Source: Gemmatimonadota bacterium
GTDB lineage: Bacteria > Gemmatimonadota > Gemmatimonadetes > Palauibacterales > Palauibacteraceae
DNA length: 64,000 nt
Reading direction: 5' to 3'
Assembly: GCA_039588275.1 (NCBI GenBank)
Contig: JBDHAC010000016.1
Coordinates: 1-64,000 of the forward strand
In this document: piece by piece, positions 7,456 to 63,548 of the stretch
Position numbering within the stretch: the stretch's first letter is position 1
How the letters are laid out: each line of letters starts with the position of its first letter
The notes under the pieces: model-generated
Told to the model about the DNA's origin: nothing
The model's database searches: none
What the model saw: only the letters and a program-made list of their open reading frames with translations
Translations under genes and position numbers: made by a program

Positions 7456-7659
7456 TGGTCCTCCTATGTCGTCTATCGGCGCGACCATCCGGTTCGAGCC
7501 ACGCCGCCATTCGCTCCATTCAAAGCTCACATGGGGCCACGGCTATCCGCGGCTACCCGATCGGGCCCCGACCCCTCGGGACCCTCCTGTATGATAAAGG
7601 GCGATAGGGTCAGGGTTGTCCGACCACGTTCGAACGATGTCGCCCTCCGCGCGAGCGGT

Positions 7660-8553
7660 TCACCCGCCCCCGGTCAGACCGGAGAGATGGAGGTGGCTGG
7701 CCCGGATCGAAGCCTCGGGGTCTACAGGCTCGTCGTGCTCCACGAAGTAATGGGCCAGGCCGGCCTGCTCCGAGCGGGCGAAGATGCCGGGAAAGTCGAT
7801 CTCTCCCGCTCCGACGTCCACCATCTCGCCATCCGCCGTTCGATCCTTCACATGGCACAGTCGGAATCGGCCGGGGTGTGCCTCGAAATACGCCAGAGGA
7901 TCTTCGCCGCCGTGGATGATCCAGAAGAGGTCGAGCTCGATTGCCACCAGGTCCGGGTCCGTGCGCGCGAGCAATACGTCGAACGGCGCTTCGCCGTCGA
8001 GGCGCTCGAACTCGAACGCGTGGTTGTGATAACCGAACTGGGTGTCGGCGGCACGGCAGGCCTGACCGAACCGGTTCATCTCGTCGGCGAGTCGGCGGTA
8101 GTCATCGAGTGATTCGCGCTCTCGGGCTGGGAGCGAGGGGAGGACGACGTATCGATGTCCGAGCGCCGCCGCCTCGTCGAGAATCTCCGGAAGCCGGTCG
8201 CGGAGCGGCCCCAGACCCACGTGAGTCGAGGGCGCCGTGAGCCCCAGGCGGTCCAGGACGGCCCTCAGCTCGGTCGGCGAACGGTCGAAGTAGCCGGCGA
8301 ACTCCACCTCGTGGTAACCCACGCCGGCTACCATCTCGAGAGTGCGCTCGACATCCTCCGCCATCAGGGAGCGAACCGTGTAGAGCTGTAACCCGATCCG
8401 GTCGAGCAGACCGGATTCCCCGTTGCGGGCGGTGGAACCGGGCCGCCTGCCCTCGGACTCCTGGCGTGCGTCGCTACGAGTACACGCCCCGGGCACGAGG
8501 GCGTACACCCCCAGCGCCGCGAGCGAACGTTCCATGAATGATCTTCTATCCAT
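7660..8553 (-). CDS. Tat-exported sugar phosphate isomerase/epimerase (xylose-isomerase-like TIM barrel)
   Basis: MDRRSFM Tat motif; IGLQLYTVR, YHNHAFEF, ELDLFW, HVKD, FVEHD. Confidence 0.9.
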   Translation of the reverse strand: MDRRSFMERSLAALGVYALVPGACTRSDARQESEGRRPGSTARNGESGLLDRIGLQLYTVRSLMAEDVERTLEMVAGVGYHEVEFAGYFDRSPTELRAVLDRLGLTAPSTHVGLGPLRDRLPEILDEAAALGHRYVVLPSLPARERESLDDYRRLADEMNRFGQACRAADTQFGYHNHAFEFERLDGEAPFDVLLARTDPDLVAIELDLFWIIHGGEDPLAYFEAHPGRFRLCHVKDRTADGEMVDVGAGEIDFPGIFARSEQAGLAHYFVEHDEPVDPEASIRASHLHLSGLTGGG

Positions 8554-8651
8554 GCCCCGAATATGGCTGTGAGGGTGATTGCGGGGCCAGCGTGGGGCTC
8601 CGGATATTGGCTCCGTCCACCCGACGGCCGGTCCGCCACAGGAGGAGAAAC

Positions 8652-9257
8652 GTGAAGCGACGCCGTGCCCTGCGCGTGCTCGGAGGCGCTGCCTCGATTC
8701 CTCTGCTCCCCTCTGCCGCGTTGGCCGAGGTCCTGGTCTTCGGTCAGCGGGCGCGCGCCGCGACCGCCGGTTTCCCGCGCTCCGATCCGTGGCGCCCCCG
8801 CACGCTCGACGCGCAGCAGGATCGCACGGTCACGGCCATCGCCGAGGTGATTCTTCCGGAGACCGACACACCGGGCGCCACTGCCGCGCGGGTGAACGAG
8901 TTCGTGGATCTGATCCTGACGGACTGGTTCGCGGAGGAGGAGCGAGATCGCTTCCTGGCCGGACTCGAGGATGTCGATGTACGGACGCGCCACCACTTCG
9001 GCGTGGATTTCGTCGAGTCCTCGGCCGAGCAGCGGATCGCGACCGTCGCGGCCATGGACGCCGAGGTCGAAGCGCTGCAGACCGCAGAGGACGCGGGCGA
9101 AGCCTCGGAGCACTTCTTCTATCAGATGAAACGGCTCACACTGGCGGGCTTCTTCACGTCCGAGGTCGGGATGAACCTGCTGGGTTACGAGATCGTCCCC
9201 GGGGCCTTCGAGGGGTGCGTGCTCCTCGACCCATACGCGGGAGGGGGTGGGTCATGA
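8652..9257 (+). CDS. Gluconate 2-dehydrogenase subunit 3 family protein (Tat)
   Basis: GGAGGAG RBS, GTG start, KRRRALRVLG; ILPETDTPGA..V..FVD; FF..KRLTLAGFFTSEVG. Confidence 0.88.
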   Translation: MKRRRALRVLGGAASIPLLPSAALAEVLVFGQRARAATAGFPRSDPWRPRTLDAQQDRTVTAIAEVILPETDTPGATAARVNEFVDLILTDWFAEEERDRFLAGLEDVDVRTRHHFGVDFVESSAEQRIATVAAMDAEVEALQTAEDAGEASEHFFYQMKRLTLAGFFTSEVGMNLLGYEIVPGAFEGCVLLDPYAGGGGS

Positions 9258-19968: not shown

Positions 19969-22900
19969 TCAGATTCGAAACGTGTCCTCCGCCAACACGC
20001 GGTCGAGGGTCGTCACGAGATGGTCCGCATCCGCGTCGGAAAAGACGAGGGGTGGCTTGATCTTGATCACGTTGTGATCCGGGCCATCGGTCGACAGGAG
20101 GATGCCGCGCTGCCTCATCCGCTCGACGGCGAGCGCGGCATGTCGGGGAGCGGGTTGGCGGGTCTCGCGGTCCCGGACGAGCTCGATGCCCAGGAAGAGC
20201 CCCTTTCCCCGCACGTCACCGATTACGGAGTGCGCTTTGACGAGCCCCGTGAGCTCATCGGCGAGGTGCGCGCCCACCCGGCCGGCCCGCTTCTGAAGGT
20301 CTTCGTCACGGATCACGTCCAACACGGCGAGCGCTGCGGCGCACGAGACGGGGTTGCCGCCGAACGTGTTGAAGTACTCCATGCCGGTGTCGAAAGAGGC
20401 CGCGATCTCGGGCGTCGTGACGACGGCGCCGATCGGGTGGCCGTTTCCGATGGGCTTGCCCAGGGTGACGATGTCCGGGACGACTCCCTGTGTCTCGAAC
20501 GCCCAGAAGTGGGATCCTACGCGGCCAAAGCCGACCTGGACCTCATCCGCGATGCACACGCCACCCGCCCCGCGCACGCCGTCGAACGACGCCGCCAGGT
20601 AACCGGCGGGGAGCGGGATCTGTCCCCCACACCCGAGGAGTGACTCGCACACGAACCCCGCGAGCCCGCGACCGGCGAGCTCCTCCGCCGCCTCGCGCAC
20701 ATGCGCCGCGTACCGATGCGCGGCTTCGGGGTCGTTGCCCCGGTACCGACCGCGGTATAGGTCGGGCATCGGAACGACGCGCACGTGCGGTGCAGCGCCC
20801 TCCCCACCGGGGCCATCGAACTTGTAGGGGCTGATCTCGACGAGCGCGCGCGTGTTCCCGTGGTATGCGCCCTCGACGACGATCACCTGATCGCCACCCG
20901 TGTGAGCCCGCGCCATGCGGAGAGCGAGCTCGTTCGCCTCGCTCCCCGAGCACACGAAGAAGCAGACGCGAAGCGGATCGGGGAGCAGCTCGGTCAAGCG
21001 CTCGCCGTACCGCAGAATCTGCTCGTGCAGGTACCGGGTGTTCGTGTTGAGCACCGCGGCCTGTCGTCGGATCGCGTCCACTACGCGTGGATGGCTGTGG
21101 CCGACGTGCGCCACGTTGTTGACGCAGTCGAGGAAGGGCTGGCCATCGGTGTCGTACAGGTACGAGCCGCGGCCCCGAACGATGTGGAGCGGCTCGCGGT
21201 ACGAGAGGCTCAACGAGGGGCCCAGCTGCCGCGCACGCGCATGGATCAGAGTCGCCGGGGATGCGGGACGGGGGGCACGGGTGGGTCGGGGGATGCCGAG
21301 GAGCGCGTTCGGATCCGGACTCAGCGAGAGCCACACCTCTCGTTGGCTCGGAGCGGCCACGCCGGGGAAGGTCCCGCGGTAGTCCAGGAGGTCGGCGATG
21401 AGCTGGAAATGCAGGTGTGGGGGCCAGTCCCCGTTCACCGGACGATCGCCCATGTACCCGACGACCTCGCCCGACTCGAACCGCTTTCCTTCGGACAGCC
21501 CCTCGAGGGAGTCACGCGACAGGTGGCCATACAGGGTCCAGAAGCGCAGCGGCCCGGTCGCGGAATCGACACCCGCCTCGCCGGTCGAACCCCGGATCTC
21601 CGAATCGTCGACCTCGTGCTCGAGGATGATCGTCGGGCCGTAGTCGAGCCGGTCGGCGTTGTCGGCGAAGCTGTGAACGACACCCGGGAGCGGTGCGTAC
21701 ACCGGCGAGCCCGGTGGCTGAAACAGGTCGAGTCCGATGTGAACGGTCCGCCACTCGGGGCGCGCGTCGGCTTCGGTTCTGAACGCTTCACTCGTATAGC
21801 ACCAACGGACTTCGTCGTACCGGCCGATGCCGAGGTCCGCTCCGGCGTCCTCCAGTCGTCGAAACACAGCCCGCGCCCACGCCTCCATGTCACCCGGCGC
21901 GTCGGTCCCGCCGGCCTCCGCGCTCGCCACGCTCAGATCGAAGGCGATCGGCTCGGGGCCATCAGGCTCAGTCTTCACGACAGGCAGGGCGATGTCTCGT
22001 CCCGCGGGCAGCCAGGCCGACAGCCGAGCGCCGGCGGGGCATGGGTCGAAGCCGCATGCGTCGCGCAGCCGATACGAAGCCAGATCGGGTCCGGGCTCGG
22101 CCTCGAAGCGTCGCAGCAGCTCCCAGGCCGCCTTCTGACTGACGAGCAGGTATTCGTTGGTGGGCTCATGCTCCGCGCGTACGGCCGATACGACGACGCT
22201 CAGGCACAGCCGCAGACGAACGAGGTCGAAGAGCGCATCGATCTCGGGCTCGCGCAGGGGATACGCGGTGTGATACCCTCGCGCGATGCGTGCGCACACA
22301 CCGACCGGATCACTCGACCGCATGGCGGCATACGCGCACGCCACGGCCAGCTCGGCCACCGTCCACGAGTGCACCATGTCACCGAAGTCGATCAGGCCGC
22401 TGATACGAGGGGCCATCGCCTCGTCGGTGCCGGGGACCACGGAACGCAGGAGGAGGTTCGCGTCGTTCGCGTCATTGTGGATCACGCTGGCGCGGAGCTC
22501 TCCGAGGCGTGGAACGGTACGCGCCTCGTAGCGATCGAGGCAGCGGGAAACCAGCTCCCGGCGCTCCACGTCATCGATGGCGGCCAGGTGCTCGCGGGTC
22601 AGCCCTGCGCCCCCGGCGAGGTCCCACACCAGCTTTCGATCCGCCTCCGGGTGCGTGAACGTATCCAGGGCTTTGTCGAGCGCGCCGAGGAAGTGCCCCA
22701 GCTCGGCGAGGAGATCGGGCGAGCGCACGCGCTGCGCGAGGGGTCTCCCCGGAACGTAGGTGAGAAGCCGTACGAGGTGGGTCTCACCTGCGGGAGAGGC
22801 GACGGTGGCGATCGGCTGATCGGCCTCCGTAGGTCGCGCGATGGGGAAGTGATACGGCAGCCCGGCGCCCGAGAGGTGCTCCAACGCGCATAGCTGCAGG

Positions 22901-50022: not shown

Positions 50023-51186
50023 ATGAAGGACGTGCCGAGCAGCGACGACAGAGGGCGGAGACGTCCCGAGAAGATGAGCCGAAGGGATTGGCTCAGGCTC
50101 GGCGCCGCAGGGGTGGCGGGTATGTCCGGGGCCACGGTCCTGCAACTCGCCGCACGGAGCCGGGCCGCCGCGGCCATGAGCGAGGCCGGGATCCCGGTTC
50201 CGCAGCAGCACTCCCCCGACGATGGACACCTGCACGCCCTCAGGCGCCCGAACGGTGCCTCCGGCGAGAGCCAGCTAAGCATGAGCGTGGTCGGGGACAC
50301 GGCGCCGAGCGGGCCGGACGCCCTCGACCCCGGAGCGTTCCTGACCGAGTTCGACTTCGGCGAGATCTCGAGGCGCGCTGATGGCCGGACCGTGCGCGAA
50401 TGGGAGGTCGTCGCGGTAGACCGCGAGATCGAGGTGGCGCCGGGCGTGTGGTTCCCCGCGTGGACCTACAACGGACGCGTTCCGGGGCCGACCTTCCGTT
50501 GCACGGAGGGCGACATCCTGCGGGTTCGCTTCCAGAACGCGGGCTCGCACCCGCACACGATCCACTTCCACGGCACACACCCGCCGGAGATGGACGGCGT
50601 CGAGCCGATCGTCGCGCCGGGAGAGCAGTTCACTTACGAGTTCGAGGCGAAGCCCTTCGGGCTGCACCTGTATCACTGCCACACCATCCCCCTCAAACGG
50701 CATATCCACAAAGGCCTGTACGGCGCGTTCATCGTGGATCCACCCGAGGGACGCCCGCCGGCACGCGAGATGGTGATGGTGATGAACGGGTTCGATACGA
50801 ACTTCGATGGTGACAACGAGGTCTACGCGGTCAACACGGCCGCGTTCTATCACCAGACCCACCCGATCCAGGTCGGGGTGGGCGACCTGTGCCGCGTCTA
50901 CCTCGTGAACCTGACGGAATTCGACCTGGTCAACTCGTTCCACCTGCATGCCGGGATGTTCCGCGTCTACCGAACCGGAACACGGCTCGATCACTACGAG
51001 CTCACCGACACGATCATGGCGTGTCAGGGGGAGAGACACGTGCTGGAGTTCGAGCTCGAGCACCCCGGGTTGCACATGTTCCACGCCCACCAGAGCGAGT
51101 TCGCGGAGCTGGGTTGGATGGGGTTCTTCGACGCCGTGCCGCTGCTGGCAGCCGACGAGGGCGTCCCGGTACACCGCTATGGCTGA
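50023..51186 (+). CDS. Tat-exported two-domain multicopper oxidase (alternative start 50074)
   Basis: SRRDWLR; HTIHFHG, YHCH..HIHKGLYG, FHLH, FHAHQ. Confidence 0.9.
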   Translation: MKDVPSSDDRGRRRPEKMSRRDWLRLGAAGVAGMSGATVLQLAARSRAAAAMSEAGIPVPQQHSPDDGHLHALRRPNGASGESQLSMSVVGDTAPSGPDALDPGAFLTEFDFGEISRRADGRTVREWEVVAVDREIEVAPGVWFPAWTYNGRVPGPTFRCTEGDILRVRFQNAGSHPHTIHFHGTHPPEMDGVEPIVAPGEQFTYEFEAKPFGLHLYHCHTIPLKRHIHKGLYGAFIVDPPEGRPPAREMVMVMNGFDTNFDGDNEVYAVNTAAFYHQTHPIQVGVGDLCRVYLVNLTEFDLVNSFHLHAGMFRVYRTGTRLDHYELTDTIMACQGERHVLEFELEHPGLHMFHAHQSEFAELGWMGFFDAVPLLAADEGVPVHRYG

Positions 51187-52372
51187 TCAGAGCGGAGAGC
51201 GCGCCGGAGCGGGCCGCCGCTGGCTGCTCGGGCTCCTCCCGCTGGTCCTGCTCGCGGGTCTGATCGCCGCGTTCCTCCAGGTGGACCCCACGAGCGTCCT
51301 GCGCGCCGCGTTTCCCCCCGTGGAGGAGCTCACCATCGAGCGCGTTACGTTGCCCGAGCCCGGCCGCATGCAGGTCCACGTCGTGAACGGCGGCCCGGAC
51401 CCCGTCACCGTCGCGCAAGTGCAGGTCGACGAGGCCTACTGGCGCTTCGAGATGGAGGGCGACCGCACGATCCCGCGCCTCGGCCGCGCGACGCTCGAGC
51501 TACACTACCCCTGGGTAGAGGGAGAGCCGCACCAGATCGCGCTCCTCACATCGACCGGGCTCACGTTCACGCACGAGATCGCGGTCGCGACCGTTACCCC
51601 GCAGCCCAACGCACGCTATCTGGGCACGTTCGCGCTCCTGGGCCTGTACGCTGGCGTGATCCCGGTCATCCTGGGGCTTCTGTGGTATCCGTTCCTGCGC
51701 CAGATCGACCGGAAATGGATCCACTTCTTCCTGAGCCTCACGATCGGGTTGCTCGTATTCCTGGCGGTCGACGCGCTCGACGAGGCGTTCGAGGTGTCGG
51801 AGGCCGTGCCCGGAGCGTTTCAGGGTGTCGGGCTCATCGCGCTCGGTGTCGCGGGTGCGCTGCTTGCCCTACGCGCGCTGGCCGGTGCCCGGGCGAGCTC
51901 CGATTCCGGGAACCGTCACCCCGCTCTCACCGTTGCGTACCTGATCGCGATCGGAATCGGGCTGCACAACCTGGGTGAGGGGCTCGCGATCGGTGCCGCC
52001 TACTCGATCGGCGAGATCGCCCTGGGAAGCTTCCTGGTGATCGGGTTCGCCCTTCACAACACGACGGAAGGCCTGGCGATCGTGGCGCCCATGGCCAGCG
52101 AGAGGCCACCCTTGTGGCACCTCGGTGCCCTCGGGGCGATCGCGGGGATCCCGACGATCCTGGGAGCGTGGATAGGGGGATTCTCCTATTCGCCGATGGC
52201 CGCGACGCTGTTTCTGGCGCTCGGGGCGGGGGCGATTCTCCAGGTCGTGATCGAGGTGGGCAGGCTGATTCAGCGGGGCCAGCCTGAAGGCGTGTTCGCC
52301 CCTTTGAATGCGCTAGGGCTGGCGCTCGGGCTCCTGGTCATGTACGGCACGGCGTTGCTGGTCGTGGCCTAG
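51179..52372 (+). CDS. ZIP-family metal transporter with N-terminal extracytoplasmic domain
   Basis: HNLGEG and HNTTEG motifs; start overlaps the MCO 3' end. Confidence 0.9.
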   Translation: MADQSGERAGAGRRWLLGLLPLVLLAGLIAAFLQVDPTSVLRAAFPPVEELTIERVTLPEPGRMQVHVVNGGPDPVTVAQVQVDEAYWRFEMEGDRTIPRLGRATLELHYPWVEGEPHQIALLTSTGLTFTHEIAVATVTPQPNARYLGTFALLGLYAGVIPVILGLLWYPFLRQIDRKWIHFFLSLTIGLLVFLAVDALDEAFEVSEAVPGAFQGVGLIALGVAGALLALRALAGARASSDSGNRHPALTVAYLIAIGIGLHNLGEGLAIGAAYSIGEIALGSFLVIGFALHNTTEGLAIVAPMASERPPLWHLGALGAIAGIPTILGAWIGGFSYSPMAATLFLALGAGAILQVVIEVGRLIQRGQPEGVFAPLNALGLALGLLVMYGTALLVVA

Positions 52373-59098: not shown

Positions 59099-59590
59099 TC
59101 ACTCTGTGCCGCGATGGCGGCGGAGCCGTCTCTCTGCAAACGCGGCCGCGACGTCGGGCCACACCATCCAGTATTCGCTCAAGTCGACAGCACCGTGGCG
59201 GGCATAGAATGCCCGTGCGGTTGCGTTGTCCGGTTCCACATCAACGCAGATTCGCGACGCTTTTTCCTCGGCAAACCAGGAGGCCAGCAGGGCCAGCAGC
59301 TCCCTGGCGATCCCCTTCCTTCGATGCTCCGGGACCACGTAGAGGTATTGCAGCTCGCCGTCACAGTCGTAGCGTCGCGTGAGGTGACCCCCGATGTAGC
59401 CGATGACCGAGTCCTCTTCCAGGCAGACGAACATGACTCGGGGTTCGAGGGCGTGTTGCGGGTGGTGCTCACACGCCAGGTATAGGGCCATGCGTGGGTC
59501 CGCGGGTCCGGCGCGGGGATCCTCGACCCGACAGCGCACCATCTGGGGAACGTCGGCCAGCGTGCCCTGTCGGTAGCTGACGGCGCTCAT
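59099..59590 (-). CDS. GNAT-family N-acetyltransferase
   Basis: LYVVPEHRRKGIA, N..ARAFYARHG. Confidence 0.88.
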   Translation of the reverse strand: MSAVSYRQGTLADVPQMVRCRVEDPRAGPADPRMALYLACEHHPQHALEPRVMFVCLEEDSVIGYIGGHLTRRYDCDGELQYLYVVPEHRRKGIARELLALLASWFAEEKASRICVDVEPDNATARAFYARHGAVDLSEYWMVWPDVAAAFAERRLRRHRGTE

Positions 59591-59762: not shown

Positions 59763-61073
59763 CTAGCGCGACGGCCCCCCAGCGGTTCGCAGCGCCCTGA
59801 ACAGAGCACCCATCCATTGCAGAATCATCCACAGGACCGTCACTGCCAGTCCCACTCCCGCCAGCACCATGACGAGCGGGAACACCTCCAACAACGGCGA
59901 GGGATCCGGTGCCGATGCACCCAGGTAGCGGGCCCAGCCGACCGCCGCGCCGCGCGCCAGGTAGGAGAGCAGGAAGACGAGCAGGAAGAGGTTGATCAGC
60001 GGGATCGCGACCCGGAAGCGACGTCGGCCGATCGTGGGATGATCGGGGCCCAACACCTCCTCGAGGAGGCACGTGAGCGCCGCCCACAGGATCATCGAGT
60101 CGATCCCGATCATGGCCCCCATCGAGTGAGCCACCACGACGTGCGTCCCGTGGATCAGCGCGTTCAGCGGCGGGATGGCGATGGCGATCGCGATGACGAG
60201 CATCAAGAAGGTCCACAACGTGCCCGACCGAATGAGGCGATCCGCGACGGGCCGGTCCGCCGAGCGCGTCTTCCGCATCATGCGGATCAGATCCAGGAAC
60301 ACCTTCGCCAGAATGATCGTCTCCAGCATGCTTACGACGAAGCTCACCCAGTGGATCCAGGGGCTTTGAGGCAGGTGGTAGGTGTGGTGGCCGTAGTTGG
60401 TGAACGTGTTCAGCAGGCCGATGAAGAAGAGGGCGAACGCCGTACGGGAGTGGGCATACCGCTCACTCCCGCTGATACACGCCGCGATGTACATGAGCGA
60501 GCCGTACGCGAGCAGATTGAACGAGCCCACCAGGGTGCCGGCGGATTTCCACTGGATCGCCAGATCGCGAAGCGGCCGCTCGCTTACGAAGTCGAGCAGA
60601 TAAAGGTGACCTTCGGTGTAGGTGACGAGGAAGAATGGGATCCCGACCGACCACATGTACACGTAGGCCGGCTTCCCCCTCAGGCGGCAATCGCCCCGCC
60701 CGAAGAAATTCCACACGAATAGGATCCACCCGGCCACGATCAGCCCTGCGAAGACCGGGTGGTACCCGAGATACTCCCTGCCCGAGAACCGTCCGCCGAG
60801 CAGGGTGACGACGATCCCGGCCCCGGCGGCCGTCCACAGGCCGACGTGCCAGGCGATGCGGCGCCGCACGGCGGGCGAGAACGGCCCGAACGTCCGGTAC
60901 AGGTACAGGTAGACGATCGCCACCCCGCCAAGAAACACCCAGGCGAAGGCGGAGGTCGCGTGGATGGGACGCGTGACGGCGCACGCGGCCAGGGCCAGAA
61001 GCGCGAGCCACGCGAGCGGGCGGACTTCCGCTCGGGCGCGTCCCGGCCTCGGGGCGGCGTTGCTCGAGCTCAT
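59763..61073 (-). CDS. Divergent heme-copper oxidase superfamily subunit I (NorB-like)
   Basis: RPIH, GREY, GHH, SMLE, N..HGT....AHSM; many TM helices; ATGA overlap with the cytochrome c gene. Confidence 0.85.
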   Translation of the reverse strand: MSSSNAAPRPGRARAEVRPLAWLALLALAACAVTRPIHATSAFAWVFLGGVAIVYLYLYRTFGPFSPAVRRRIAWHVGLWTAAGAGIVVTLLGGRFSGREYLGYHPVFAGLIVAGWILFVWNFFGRGDCRLRGKPAYVYMWSVGIPFFLVTYTEGHLYLLDFVSERPLRDLAIQWKSAGTLVGSFNLLAYGSLMYIAACISGSERYAHSRTAFALFFIGLLNTFTNYGHHTYHLPQSPWIHWVSFVVSMLETIILAKVFLDLIRMMRKTRSADRPVADRLIRSGTLWTFLMLVIAIAIAIPPLNALIHGTHVVVAHSMGAMIGIDSMILWAALTCLLEEVLGPDHPTIGRRRFRVAIPLINLFLLVFLLSYLARGAAVGWARYLGASAPDPSPLLEVFPLVMVLAGVGLAVTVLWMILQWMGALFRALRTAGGPSR

Positions 61074-61852
61074 CGGTACTCGAACCAGGGCACGGTGCTC
61101 CAGGAGAAGTCTTCGTGCTCCAGAAGCGAGTCGTTGAGCCGTACAAGCTCGGACCGGTTCGACGAGATCCACTCCAGATAGGCAGTGAGCCCCTGAACTT
61201 CCTCGTCGGTCAACTCGAATGGCGGCATGTTCCTGAGTCCGGCATCCAGCACGGCCCTGAGCGCCGGAACCGAGCGGTCGATCGAGCTCCGCGACAGATC
61301 GGGCGCCCGCATCTGACCGTCCATGAACGGCACGTGACAGGCGCCGCACCCGCGCGCGGTCCACACCTCGAGTCCGCGTCGGGCGGTCGCGTCCATGACC
61401 CCGCCGCCCTCTCGAGCCCACTCGTCCGCGATGCGCTCGAAGTGTGCGATCGGCGACACACCCTCGATGGTGGCGAGCGGCGTGGGTTGGGATTGTCCGG
61501 TTCGGTTGACGGCTCGGAGGAAGGCCAGGACCGCCTCCTGATCGGCTGCGGGCATCCGGAACGCCGGCATTTGGCGTGCGCCATCGTCGAGGACCGCGCG
61601 GAACTCAGCGTCCGGCGTCGCCTCCGTGACCCGGTTCGTGAGATCGGGTCCCAAGAAGCCACCGAATCCGTAGATTTGGTGGCACGCCTGGCAGTTGTTG
61701 CCGCGCCACACGGCCAGCCCGCGTCGTTCGAGATCCGTCAGTGGCGGGTCTGACACACGCCGCGGGAAATCCGTGTAGGCCACTACCGAGAGACCGATAT
61801 AGGCCACCACCAGACCTGCGAGGATAGCCTCGCAACGGGCGGGTTTTCTCAC
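61070..61852 (-). CDS. Membrane-anchored di-heme cytochrome c (NorC-like; start approximate)
   Basis: TM anchor; CQACHQIYGFGGFLGPDLTN..MP; second domain CGACH..APDLS..MP. Confidence 0.88.
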   Translation of the reverse strand: MRKPARCEAILAGLVVAYIGLSVVAYTDFPRRVSDPPLTDLERRGLAVWRGNNCQACHQIYGFGGFLGPDLTNRVTEATPDAEFRAVLDDGARQMPAFRMPAADQEAVLAFLRAVNRTGQSQPTPLATIEGVSPIAHFERIADEWAREGGGVMDATARRGLEVWTARGCGACHVPFMDGQMRAPDLSRSSIDRSVPALRAVLDAGLRNMPPFELTDEEVQGLTAYLEWISSNRSELVRLNDSLLEHEDFSWSTVPWFEYR

Positions 61853-61952: not shown

Positions 61953-63548
61953 GTGCCGACCCTGAGTCAGCTCCGCATGTACCGACGCTTTCTGTTCGGG
62001 CTCCGGGACTTCATGCGGGAGAGGAGCACGCTGGAAGAGGTTCAGGCCGGCGTTCGAGACCGCCTGGCGCGACGGGAGGACAACCTCCTCCGTGTCGCCG
62101 AACGGGGCTTGTTCGGCCACCCGAAGAGCCCTTATCTGCCGTTGTTTCGTCACGCCGGTTGTGAGCTGGGCGATTTCAAGGCGCTGGTACGGGCGAGCGG
62201 GGTCGATGGGGCGCTTCGGACGCTCAGGGAGGCGGGCGTCTACTTTACGTTTGAAGAGATCAAAGGCAGAGAACCGGTCGTGCGGGGTGGCCGGGAGATT
62301 GCCGTGGACCCCTCCGACTTCGACAACCCCCACCTGAGCCGCTACTACCAACGGGCGAGCGGGGGCACAACCGGACCCGCAACCCGGGTGTCGACCGATC
62401 TAGAGCACCTGTCCCGCGAGGCGTGGCATCGGATGCTGGTTCTGGATGCGCATGGAGTGCTGGGAGCCCCGTACGCGATCTGGCGGCCGGAGCTCCCCGG
62501 AAGCGGTCTGAATGCGGTGCTGCGGGCGGCCCACATCGGCTACCCGGCCTGGAGGTGGTTCACACCGTTGATTCCGGGTGACCTGAAGCCGCCTCTCCGG
62601 TTTCGTCTCGCGAACACCGCGACCGTCGCGTTGGGGCGGGCGTTCGGAGGCACCATCCCGTGGCCGGAACCGGTGGCTCTTCATGAAGCGGGACGGATCG
62701 CACGGTGGGTCGCCGGGATGGTGAGCGAGCATGGTCGAGCGCTGCTCAACACGACGGTAAGCAATGGGCTGAGAGTGGGGTTGGCGGCACGCGATGCCGG
62801 GCTCGATCTGACCGGCGCGAAATTCATGATCGCCGGGGAGCCCGCTACACGGGCGAAGGTGGACGGGATCAGGGCGACCGGAGCGACCCACTACACCGAT
62901 TACGGGATGGCCGAAGCCGGACGCCTCGGGCTGGGCTGCGTGAGGCCGGTCGGCGAGAACGACGTTCATGTCCTGACGGATGCGTACGCGGTGGTCGCAT
63001 TCCGGCGCGAAGTCCCGCTCGCCGGAGAGATCGTGACGTCCTTCCACATGACCTCGATCTCCCCCGCCACTCCGAAGCTCCTCCTGAACGTAGAGTTCGA
63101 CGACTTCGGCATCGCGGAGGAGCGTGAGTGCGGGTGCCCGCTGGGGGAGCTCGGACTGACCCTGCACCTGCGCGACATCAGGAGCTTCGGCAAGCTGGTG
63201 GGGGAGGGGGTCTCTCTGGTGGGCAGCGATATGATCCGGATTCTGGAGGAGGTGCTCCCGGCTCGCTTCGGAGGCAGCGCTCTCGACTACCAGCTCGCGG
63301 AGGAGGAGGATGCCGCCGGATTCACACGCCTCGCGCTGGTCATCAGCCCGCGGGTGGACGTCGACGATGAGGAGGCCGTGATCGACGCCATGCTCGAGGC
63401 GCTTGCCCGAACGGACCTCGCCGCGGACGTGGCGCGGGCGTTCTGGGAGCGGGCCGACACGTTCGTCGTGCGCCGCGAGGAGCCGTTCGTGACGGCACGA
63501 GGGAAGCAGATGCCGCTTCGACGGGCGACCCCCGGCCTCGCCCGGTGA
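61953..63548 (+). CDS. Uncharacterised PaaK/GH3-like adenylate-forming protein (paralog of 3857-5455)
   Basis: SGGTTG, AGEP, YGMAE, LNVEFDD..CGC..IRSFGKL, DYQLAE, TARGK. Confidence 0.6.
   Translation: MPTLSQLRMYRRFLFGLRDFMRERSTLEEVQAGVRDRLARREDNLLRVAERGLFGHPKSPYLPLFRHAGCELGDFKALVRASGVDGALRTLREAGVYFTFEEIKGREPVVRGGREIAVDPSDFDNPHLSRYYQRASGGTTGPATRVSTDLEHLSREAWHRMLVLDAHGVLGAPYAIWRPELPGSGLNAVLRAAHIGYPAWRWFTPLIPGDLKPPLRFRLANTATVALGRAFGGTIPWPEPVALHEAGRIARWVAGMVSEHGRALLNTTVSNGLRVGLAARDAGLDLTGAKFMIAGEPATRAKVDGIRATGATHYTDYGMAEAGRLGLGCVRPVGENDVHVLTDAYAVVAFRREVPLAGEIVTSFHMTSISPATPKLLLNVEFDDFGIAEERECGCPLGELGLTLHLRDIRSFGKLVGEGVSLVGSDMIRILEEVLPARFGGSALDYQLAEEEDAAGFTRLALVISPRVDVDDEEAVIDAMLEALARTDLAADVARAFWERADTFVVRREEPFVTARGKQMPLRRATPGLAR

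Follow-up and report, generated by a model that had tools for sequence, protein, structure and literature searches.

Among the families described for the heme-copper superfamily is one named 'N2O red' (N2Ored), which is putative, marked as uncharacterised and recorded in 293 GTDB genomes (Murali 2024, PMC11214002, cited here and below from parts of the article and its datasets). Other putative families listed there include nNOR, which is related to the B family and has a His/Met-ligated low-spin heme, and NOD, a presumed nitric oxide dismutase that derives from nitric oxide reductases, has an altered site and is nested within qNOR. Here we describe a pair of genes from a Gemmatimonadota bacterium that codes for a NorB/CcoN-like subunit I with a rebuilt active site and a NorC-like cytochrome c, subunit II. 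The pair lies at positions 59763..61852 of a stretch of 64,000 nucleotides (assembly GCA_039588275.1, contig JBDHAC010000016.1, positions 1 to 64,000), which we call the window. Tentatively, we place the removal of nitric oxide (NO) first among its possible functions; it would then be a cytochrome c-fed heme b/b3 enzyme that works without the canonical FeB and serves as an N-oxide sink.

By sequence comparison the pair is a new member of the already named N2Ored family, so that the suspicion of a proposed divergent heme-copper family, voiced in a preliminary description of this DNA, was well founded. Subunit I is 69% identical over 395 aa to MAG71575.1 (P0010), which Dataset S4 of PMC11214002 lists among its 11 references for N2Ored and which is the one used in our comparison. 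Both proteins fall in the same subclade, with a support of 95 in the SH-like approximate likelihood ratio test (SH-aLRT), and both carry the motifs QWK..G, GHHTYH, SMLE and AHSM. The family likewise lacks the active-site Tyr and is related to cNOR and the C family, and SZUA-318, which is scored N2Ored = 1 in Dataset S6 of that study, is among the family loci found here. In a quick IQ-TREE phylogeny (SH-aLRT only, few outgroups, midpoint root), a branch with an SH-aLRT of 99 separates the 45 family rows from cNOR, qNOR and CcoN. The family is widespread: in species genomes, the first 600 pattern matches listed included 593 relatives, a lower bound, and a plasmid search returned no member. Our literature search, which missed most subscription papers, found no biochemical study of the family, and the available parts of PMC12569097 and PMC10390337 contain nothing on it.

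Subunit I (59763..61073, minus strand, 436 aa as assembled) is a heme-copper-superfamily protein with the 12-helix COX1 fold, although the window copy itself is without half of helix I. It matches PF00115 (COX1) with 60.9 bits (E 1.3e-16, cut-off 34.8), and searches with the single sequence gave neither an NCBIfam family nor a PDB match. A family profile of 126 members (75 of 81 full-length rows and 51 closer homologs; six apparently frameshifted or degenerate rows were excluded) matched eight PDB sequences, namely the cNORs 4xyd (E 2.6e-26) and 3o0r (3.9e-21), five cbb3 subunits I (1.6e-20 to 1.7e-13) and the qNOR 3ayf. The AlphaFold2 model of an intact homolog with 94% identity (P0003) has 12 long membrane helices, a continuous helix VI and a predicted local distance difference test (pLDDT) score of 94. 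Its best fold matches were tied: cNOR reached Z 39.2 at a root-mean-square deviation (rmsd) of 2.9 over 425 aligned residues, and cbb3 reached Z 38.9 at 3.0 over 439. Across the cNOR/cbb3 set, Z was 37–39 with an rmsd of about 3 over 423–441 residues; qNOR (Z about 32) and A-family oxidases (about 30) followed.

The protein was placed in register with Pseudomonas aeruginosa NorB in two ways, by aligning a hidden Markov model (HMM) of the family with 3o0r_B and by a MAFFT alignment with four cNOR, two qNOR and two CcoN sequences. Both gave the same register; an hhalign comparison of the family with one qNOR had helices VI and X in poor register and was not used. The motifs that had been picked out by eye as retained (RPIH, GREY, the GHH pair, SMLE, HGT and AH) are present in both alignments, all of them encoded on the minus strand. 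RPIH (residues 35–38, 60960..60971) contains Arg35, equivalent to NorB Arg57, and His38, equivalent to the low-spin heme b ligand His60; the site is kept in all 117 rows that have a residue there. GREY (98–101, 60771..60782) contains Glu100 at the position of Glu135, which we take to be a Ca2+ ligand in cNOR, and Gly103 occupies the position of Glu138. At the end of helix VII (Asn222–His233, 60375..60410), GHHTYH (228–233) supplies His229 and His230 in place of His258/259 next to the conserved Asn222 and Asn226; Thr223 is found where CcoN has its cross-link Tyr251, and His233 corresponds to Trp262. SMLE (248–251, 60321..60332) matches Ser277 and Glu280 of cNOR with Ser248 and Glu251. Helix X (His308–Met318, 60120..60152) carries HGT at 308–310 and AHSM at 315–318, with His308 equivalent to His339, His316 equivalent to the high-spin heme ligand His347, and Met318 in place of His349. 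Met318 is likely the second ligand of the low-spin heme, which would then be His/Met-ligated, as the preliminary description had proposed from AHSM.

The most prominent departure from cNOR is the rebuilt helix VI (Asp170–Gly191, 60501..60566, minus strand), whose residues 174–186 read QWKSAGTLVGSFN. Asp170 still matches Asp198, but Gly179 stands in the position of His207, the Glu211 column is deleted and appears as a one-residue gap, Asn186 replaces Glu215, and Lys176 aligns with Trp204. Subunit I has no His at 157–207 and no Glu at 166–203, and consequently no register shift recovers HxxxE, wherever the gap is placed (against CcoN, helix VI is gapless in the HMM alignment and has a one-residue gap in the MAFFT alignment). 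The reported loss of all three NorB residues, His207, Glu211 and Glu215, is therefore confirmed, and a proper alignment, which might have turned the protein into an ordinary cNOR, recovered neither HxxxE nor the HxH of helix X. Of the six invariant His of the superfamily, four are kept (38, 229, 230 and 316) and two are replaced, His207 by Gly179 and His349 by Met318. A helical wheel puts Trp175, Lys176, Gly179, Gly183, Asn186 and Tyr190 on the same face of helix VI, that of His207. Judging from the alignment and this wheel, Lys176 and Asn186 would be among the residues that line the pocket.

These substitutions are not private to one genome. A search for close homologs matched 402 proteins, and in a 121-row alignment made from the 120 listed, Gln174, Trp175, Gly179, Asn186, His229, His230, His233 and Glu251 are invariant (121/121); position 176 is Lys in 112 rows and Arg in nine, and His316 and Met318 are found in all 120 rows with a residue there. 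The more diverse set comprised 81 rows of 395–560 aa, kept from 152 (150 listed of 283 matches, plus P0003 and P0010) after fragments and fusions had been dropped. Here Asn186 is conserved in 76 rows, His229 in 80, His230 in 78 and Met318 in 77, and His233 in only 30. The extra His after the pair, which the preliminary description had singled out, is thus a constant of the close clade and does not define the family. Compared with two genus mates, subunit I has ratios of nonsynonymous to synonymous substitution rates (dN/dS) of 0.065 and 0.071, and subunit II has one of 0.088. These low values, a mark of purifying selection, argue together with the fixation of the substitutions across the family that the rebuilt site is not a product of decay. 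The pair could still be read as an ordinary cNOR that has been misaligned, or as a decaying pseudo-NOR, since many homologs carry the public name 'nitric oxide reductase subunit B' and the window copy has a deletion of its own (see below). The helix VI without His or Glu, the fixed substitutions, the low dN/dS and the separate, well-supported branch make this reading hardly credible for the window pair, and for the family it is refuted; the non-canonical enzyme suspected at the outset stands.

Two further residues had to be considered as substitute metal ligands. His233 was rejected because it is not family-wide. His181, seen in the 10 printed of 11 close homologs that carry a His or Glu in helix VI, was rejected because it faces the opposite side of the helix. 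Positions 176, 179 and 251 covary in the diverse set, with Lys/Gly/Glu in 58 of 81 rows and His/Asp/Ala in 16, and the near-perfect covariation points to a functional pocket. The His/Asp type forms a subclade of its own (SH-aLRT 100 in the quick tree). In this deep sister subclade (a subset of P0252–P0299, and P0431), Ala replaces Glu251 and the pair is often followed by a third His (GHHH); His176, Asp179 and Ala251 with GHHH may provide another set of ligands. A Gammaproteobacterium is given as the source of one member. The putative gNOR, like nNOR a relative of the B family, in which Asp replaces one active-site His, is comparable in so far as this subclade has Asp at the His207 position.

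The constraint on the pocket also bears on a non-catalytic role, in which the NorBC scaffold would have become a transmembrane electron conduit or a gas sensor or buffer, for example in the service of NosZ or of redox balance. A dismantled second-metal site would be in keeping with such a role, as would the nos clusters that adjoin some loci. However, the polar face (Lys176, Asn186, Tyr190, Asn222/226, His229/230 and Glu251) is constrained almost absolutely, beyond what a wire needs, nosZ is missing from most carriers in the host family, and no signalling domain or partner is conserved. We regard a non-catalytic role as improbable.

Subunit II (61070..61852, minus strand, 260 aa) precedes subunit I, and the two reading frames overlap by 4 nt (ATGA). 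It consists of an N-terminal membrane helix and two class I cytochrome c domains, which Pfam recognizes as two stretches (PF13442/PF00034). The proposed GTG start puts the first CxxCH at residue 54, the modal N-terminal length among homologs. Heme c site 1 is CQACH (residues 54–58, 61679..61693) with Met95 (61568–61570) as its likely distal ligand, and site 2 is CGACH (residues 169–173, 61334..61348), probably with Met209 (61226–61228), all on the minus strand. Of 120 aligned rows, 119 have two CxxCH motifs, and the same number holds for Met95 and for Met209. With 36% identity between them, the heme domains represent an internal duplication. A cytochrome c gene lies upstream of subunit I on the same strand in 81 of 81 loci (the window and the best 80 of at least 593 genome matches); it has two CxxCH in 73 of them, and the remaining loci are partly cut or split. 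Four representatives of the family are fused to cytochrome c (P0168, P0180, P0218 and P0222, with one or three C-terminal domains), which supports the view that the two subunits are likely to form one complex; the triheme fusions presumably resemble fusions of the CcoN-CcoO type. The two CxxCH domains noted earlier are thus real, but they are not a family trait. A diheme subunit II had been considered as unique to the family and was rejected as such: on a plasmid of Eleftheria terrae, a canonical cNOR operon that includes norQD (L190:502-1374) also has a NorC with two CxxCH, and the Bacteroidota-type clade of N2Ored differs from the window pair in that its cytochrome c is monoheme.

Compared with the rest of its family, the window copy has lost 28 residues. 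An in-frame 84-bp deletion, with its junction at 60971..60972 (minus strand), has removed the C-terminal half of helix I together with the loop that leads to Arg35/His38 and is absent from all compared relatives. The spacer between helix I and RPIH is 8 aa here and 34–37 aa in all 114 other rows with both anchors, subunit I is 463–474 aa long in the seven other members of its 90% cluster, and both genus mates have the 84 bases. A 239-base contig from run X1 (depth 2.8) is identical over 60971–61140 and then runs into the missing segment (its loose end was translated by eye); it shows that a near-identical population has an intact allele. From run X3 we obtained only short, dissimilar pieces. 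A tblastn search of the rest of the genome did not recover the missing residues (best E 0.061), and apart from a single shared base the junction has no flanking repeat. The deletion could be either a mutation or an assembly error. If real, it would probably disturb folding and the window copy would likely be impaired; an alignment-free fold of the 436-aa protein (pLDDT 52.5) was uninformative on this point. For this reason, the window copy is a poor test subject.

How far the pair resembles described enzymes can now be stated. With cNOR (3O0R, and 4XYD from Roseobacter denitrificans) it shares the norC-norB gene order with a membrane-anchored cytochrome c upstream and, through the homolog model, the fold (Z 39.2 and 37.3; TM-score 0.80 to 3o0r). 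It differs in the helix VI and helix X residues described above, in its separate branch and in that no norQ (PF08406) was found in the host genome (85.8% complete), where norD was not searched for; norQ/norD were not among the recurring neighbors in the genome or the Bacteroidota-type loci, and a Thermus cNOR stretch also shows no norQ/norD. The preliminary description had found neither norQ nor a nitrite reductase gene in the window. For norQ this extends to the genome; for nitrite reductase it does not, as nirS is present on another contig, C15. With cbb3 (CcoN, 3MK7) the pair shares the fold, the RPxH and D-x3-QW motifs and a cytochrome c partner, but it has no CuB His207, has Thr223 for Tyr251 and Met at the second low-spin heme position, and no other cco genes are conserved alongside. 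NOD was of interest because NO dismutation had been put forward as one possible activity. The family has two subunits with a separate cytochrome c, and in our tree, which contained no NOD sequence, it lies outside cNOR plus qNOR; NO dismutation finds no support.

If the pair removes NO, electrons would pass from a periplasmic donor through the two His/Met c hemes to the low-spin heme b (His38/Met318), which is likely raised in potential, and on to the high-spin heme b3 (His316). A canonical FeB with three His and one Glu could not be built. The distal pocket would keep His229 and His230, be lined by Lys176, Asn186, Asn226 and Glu251, and have glycines at the His207 and Gly212 positions. Two arrangements can be imagined. 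Either there is no second metal, and Lys176 and Glu251 supply protons to a heme-bound N-oxide, or a low-coordinate metal sits on the two His with Lys176 or solvent as a further ligand. Four-electron reduction of O2 is unlikely, as there is no cross-link Tyr, either at H+4 of helix VI or at the helix VII position of CcoN (the criterion used in PMC11214002). Since most carriers lack a nitrite reductase, the enzyme would act as a stand-alone N-oxide sink under low oxygen and not as a step in the carrier's own denitrification.

What speaks for NO removal comes partly from gene content and partly from the protein. Among 301 genomes of the phylum there are 22 carriers, of which only three have nirS or nirK, and three single-contig genomes of genus g2 contain two A-family oxidases and this family only, with no nir or nosZ found. 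A His/Met low-spin heme also occurs in the putative nNOR, and the covariation in the pocket fits an enzyme. Neighboring genes were informative in Bacteroidota-type loci (the best 80 of 548 metagenome matches, mostly short loci; the label comes from P0423). A cytochrome c gene is present in 67 of these, monoheme in every case. An Rrf2 regulator with three Cys occurs in 34 loci (the motif is found in 39/39 Rrf2 proteins), the Fe-S repair protein RIC in 20 (TIGR03652 above cut-off), hemerythrin in 11, Crp/Fnr in eight and clade II nosZ in 11, nine of which also have nosL/D/Y; a QueD-like gene (22 loci) and a tryptophanase-like lyase (16) recur as well. When only the 30 loci of at least 15 kb are counted, Rrf2 is found in 17, RIC in 11, nosZ in nine and any of these in 24; at 70% clustering, nosZ accompanies eight of 42 clusters. 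The Rrf2, RIC and nos neighbors tie the family to low-oxygen N-oxide metabolism and leave the substrate unnamed.

Several points weigh against NO removal. Loss of FeB ligands inactivates cNOR and qNOR, and NO reduction would therefore need a different mechanism in this family. All characterised cNOR and qNOR use an FeB held by three His and a Glu (PMC11214002). Many carriers have another NO reductase, as does the host with its eNOR-type enzyme; in Dataset S6, a sorted table of which the first 53 carriers were inspected by eye, about 20 have cNOR, qNOR, eNOR or sNOR. The Bacteroidota-type Rrf2 is not NsrR by cut-off, and islands of Rrf2, RIC and nos are a general sign of anoxic N-oxide metabolism, by which NO and nitrous oxide (N2O) cannot be told apart. 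The 'cNor' of Cloacibacterium CB-01, for which PMC11168931 reports minor NO reductase activity, is not counted on either side, as it may or may not belong to this family. The window's own clade has no such neighbors: in its 81 loci no gene family besides cytochrome c recurs in more than 21, and by inspection none of the recurring neighbors was recognized as nir, nos or norQD. Finally, within the host family carriers have nosZ less often than non-carriers do, which fits reduction of N2O better.

The reduction of N2O independently of NosZ is the function that gave the family its published name, and it had been among the guesses of the preliminary description. The high-potential heme chain would pass two electrons to N2O in the open pocket, where Lys176 would protonate the oxygen that leaves, and the enzyme would back up or replace the copper enzyme NosZ. 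Besides the proposal itself (Murali 2024, PMC11214002), the gene content of the host genome is in its favor. The host contains an A-family oxidase, a B-family oxidase, an eNOR-type enzyme (with the Gln at H+4 that is diagnostic of eNOR in the cited part of PMC8756737) and nirS, but no nosZ, NirK or clade III L-NosZ over cut-off was found; its genus mate G349 has nirS and an eNOR-type enzyme, and no nosZ was found there. In both, the pair would complete the pathway. In the phylum, nosZ is present in three of 22 carriers and 114 of 279 other genomes; in the host family (n = 99) in three of the 34 genomes with the pair's family, against 34 of the 65 without it; and in genus g2 in one of 29 and two of six. 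In 11 of the 80 Bacteroidota-type loci the family gene lies beside nosZ. Naive Fisher tests on nosZ give p values of 2e-5 (family) and 0.012 (phylum), which we do not count because kin are not independent. Indeed, 32 of the 34 host-family carriers fall in two genera, and at genus level the exclusion vanishes, nosZ being present in three of four carrier genera and 13 of 16 others (p = 1).

The published name rests on one organism, Flexibacter canadensis, which is, we assume, the one since renamed Solitalea canadensis. The N2O label cites papers of 1990 and 1992 on Flexibacter canadensis, and in dataset rows of PMC11214002 S. canadensis has, besides this family, nosZ, nosD, qNOR and nirK. Its membrane-bound activity could thus be explained by canonical NosZ, and we consider the label weakly founded. 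Four reference organisms could be located in Dataset S8 of that study, and two of these have nosZ, as do 15 of 45 carriers outside the host phylum (taken from the 80 best loci, completeness not given), including the reference lineage UBA2161. From the chemical side, the evidence is also unfavorable. N2O binds heme iron very weakly, and we know of no heme N2O reductase. The evidence on N2O reduction is therefore mixed, and we consider it possible but unlikely. The same holds for its more specific form, a heme-based, NosZ-independent N2O reductase with a pocket of two His and a Lys that extends over a Gly in the place of the metal-binding His, and with a His/Asp sister subclade, a pocket not described in the literature searched; we doubt it to a similar degree. 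If it were true, this would be a third class of N2O-destroying enzyme, denitrification would be completed in genomes with nirS and eNOR that lack nosZ, and the helix VI His of the superfamily would be dispensable.

The enzyme might also perform other redox chemistry, either oxidizing NO or hydroxylamine and feeding cytochrome c and the aerobic chain, or carrying out a two-electron reaction of peroxide or O2, or a reaction of nitrite. A chain in which all hemes are His/Met-ligated is likely of high potential, which would suit the export of electrons, and an O2 reductase of the A or C family is recorded for each of the first 53 carriers listed in Dataset S6. Moreover, helix VI aligns without a gap to CcoN by HMM, QW and RPxH are shared with it, and the existence of the His176/Asp179/Ala251 pocket hints that the family may have more than a single chemistry. 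Yet no neighboring gene names another substrate, the cross-link Tyr is absent and the MAFFT alignment does place a gap against CcoN; we think such chemistry rather unlikely.

Returning to NO removal, and whatever the substrate may prove to be, the assignment has practical consequences. Automatic names such as 'nitric oxide reductase subunit B' or 'cbb3 subunit I' credit genomes with NO reduction or microaerobic respiration, and a protein so named can build neither the canonical cNOR site nor that of cbb3. For greenhouse-gas models it matters whether N2O is a product of this family, a substrate or neither. The residue map (Lys176, Gly179, Asn186, Asn226, Glu251, Met318 and the His/Asp subclade) makes the question testable, and cultured carriers exist. 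New in our analysis are this residue-level map, the two pocket types, the private deletion, the Rrf2/RIC/nos neighbors of the Bacteroidota-type loci, the presence of NosZ in the organism behind the N2O label and the scarcity of nosZ in host-family carriers, which does not hold at genus level.

Around the pair itself, a GNAT acetyltransferase gene lies downstream of subunit I (59099–59590, minus strand); a matching stretch is found in the locus of one genus mate (L193) and is absent from the other (L194). Divergent from the pair, a gene at 61953–63548 (plus strand) codes for a 531-aa protein that matches neither Pfam nor NCBIfam families. It is followed, up to position 66693 of the contig, by TctC-like and probable tripartite-transporter membrane genes, and the block is syntenic in the genus mates. 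We found no sigma-70 promoter match and, by a simple pattern, no FNR-like box. Elsewhere in the window (50023–52372, plus strand), a multicopper gene precedes a membrane protein that by eye looks like a ZIP-type metal transporter. The former (50023–51186), a two-domain protein with a twin-arginine-translocation (TAT) type signal, was considered as NirK and rejected (95.7 versus a cut-off of 296.3 bits).

Three other recurring neighbors, none of which reached the cut-off of any family, were seen in the Bacteroidota-type loci. A 605-aa soluble protein (L132:1859-3673) occurs in 18 loci and a 421-aa membrane protein (L102:12285-13547) in 14; a membrane protein of 431 aa, one stretch of which weakly resembles COX1 (L126:4642-5934), occurs in nine.

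The respiratory genes of the host showed some features of their own. Its cd1 nitrite reductase (C15, about 20210–22441; L010:430-2664) has two CxxCH, with an extra N-terminal cytochrome c domain preceding the usual one. The cited part of PMC8756737 describes a C1-C2-NirS architecture as unique to Chloroflexi and reports it from a genome that also has eNOR, as the host does. The eNOR-type operon (7567–9105) and the B-family oxidase (from 20842) lie about 12 kb apart on contig C60. The oxidase gene is split over the ends of contigs C60 and C49, and G349 has the same pair on one contig. Additional molybdopterin enzymes on contig C62 were considered as Nar or Nap and rejected, since on inspection they look like alternative complex III. 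At C62:3650-18523 there are two tandem modules of this kind, with a tetraheme cytochrome, a molybdopterin-fold/Fe-S subunit and membrane subunits, and a third similar molybdopterin-fold gene is located on contig C13. A further molybdopterin enzyme (C6:115144-116412) has one in-frame TGA in all five genomes searched and is likely a selenocysteine-containing formate dehydrogenase.

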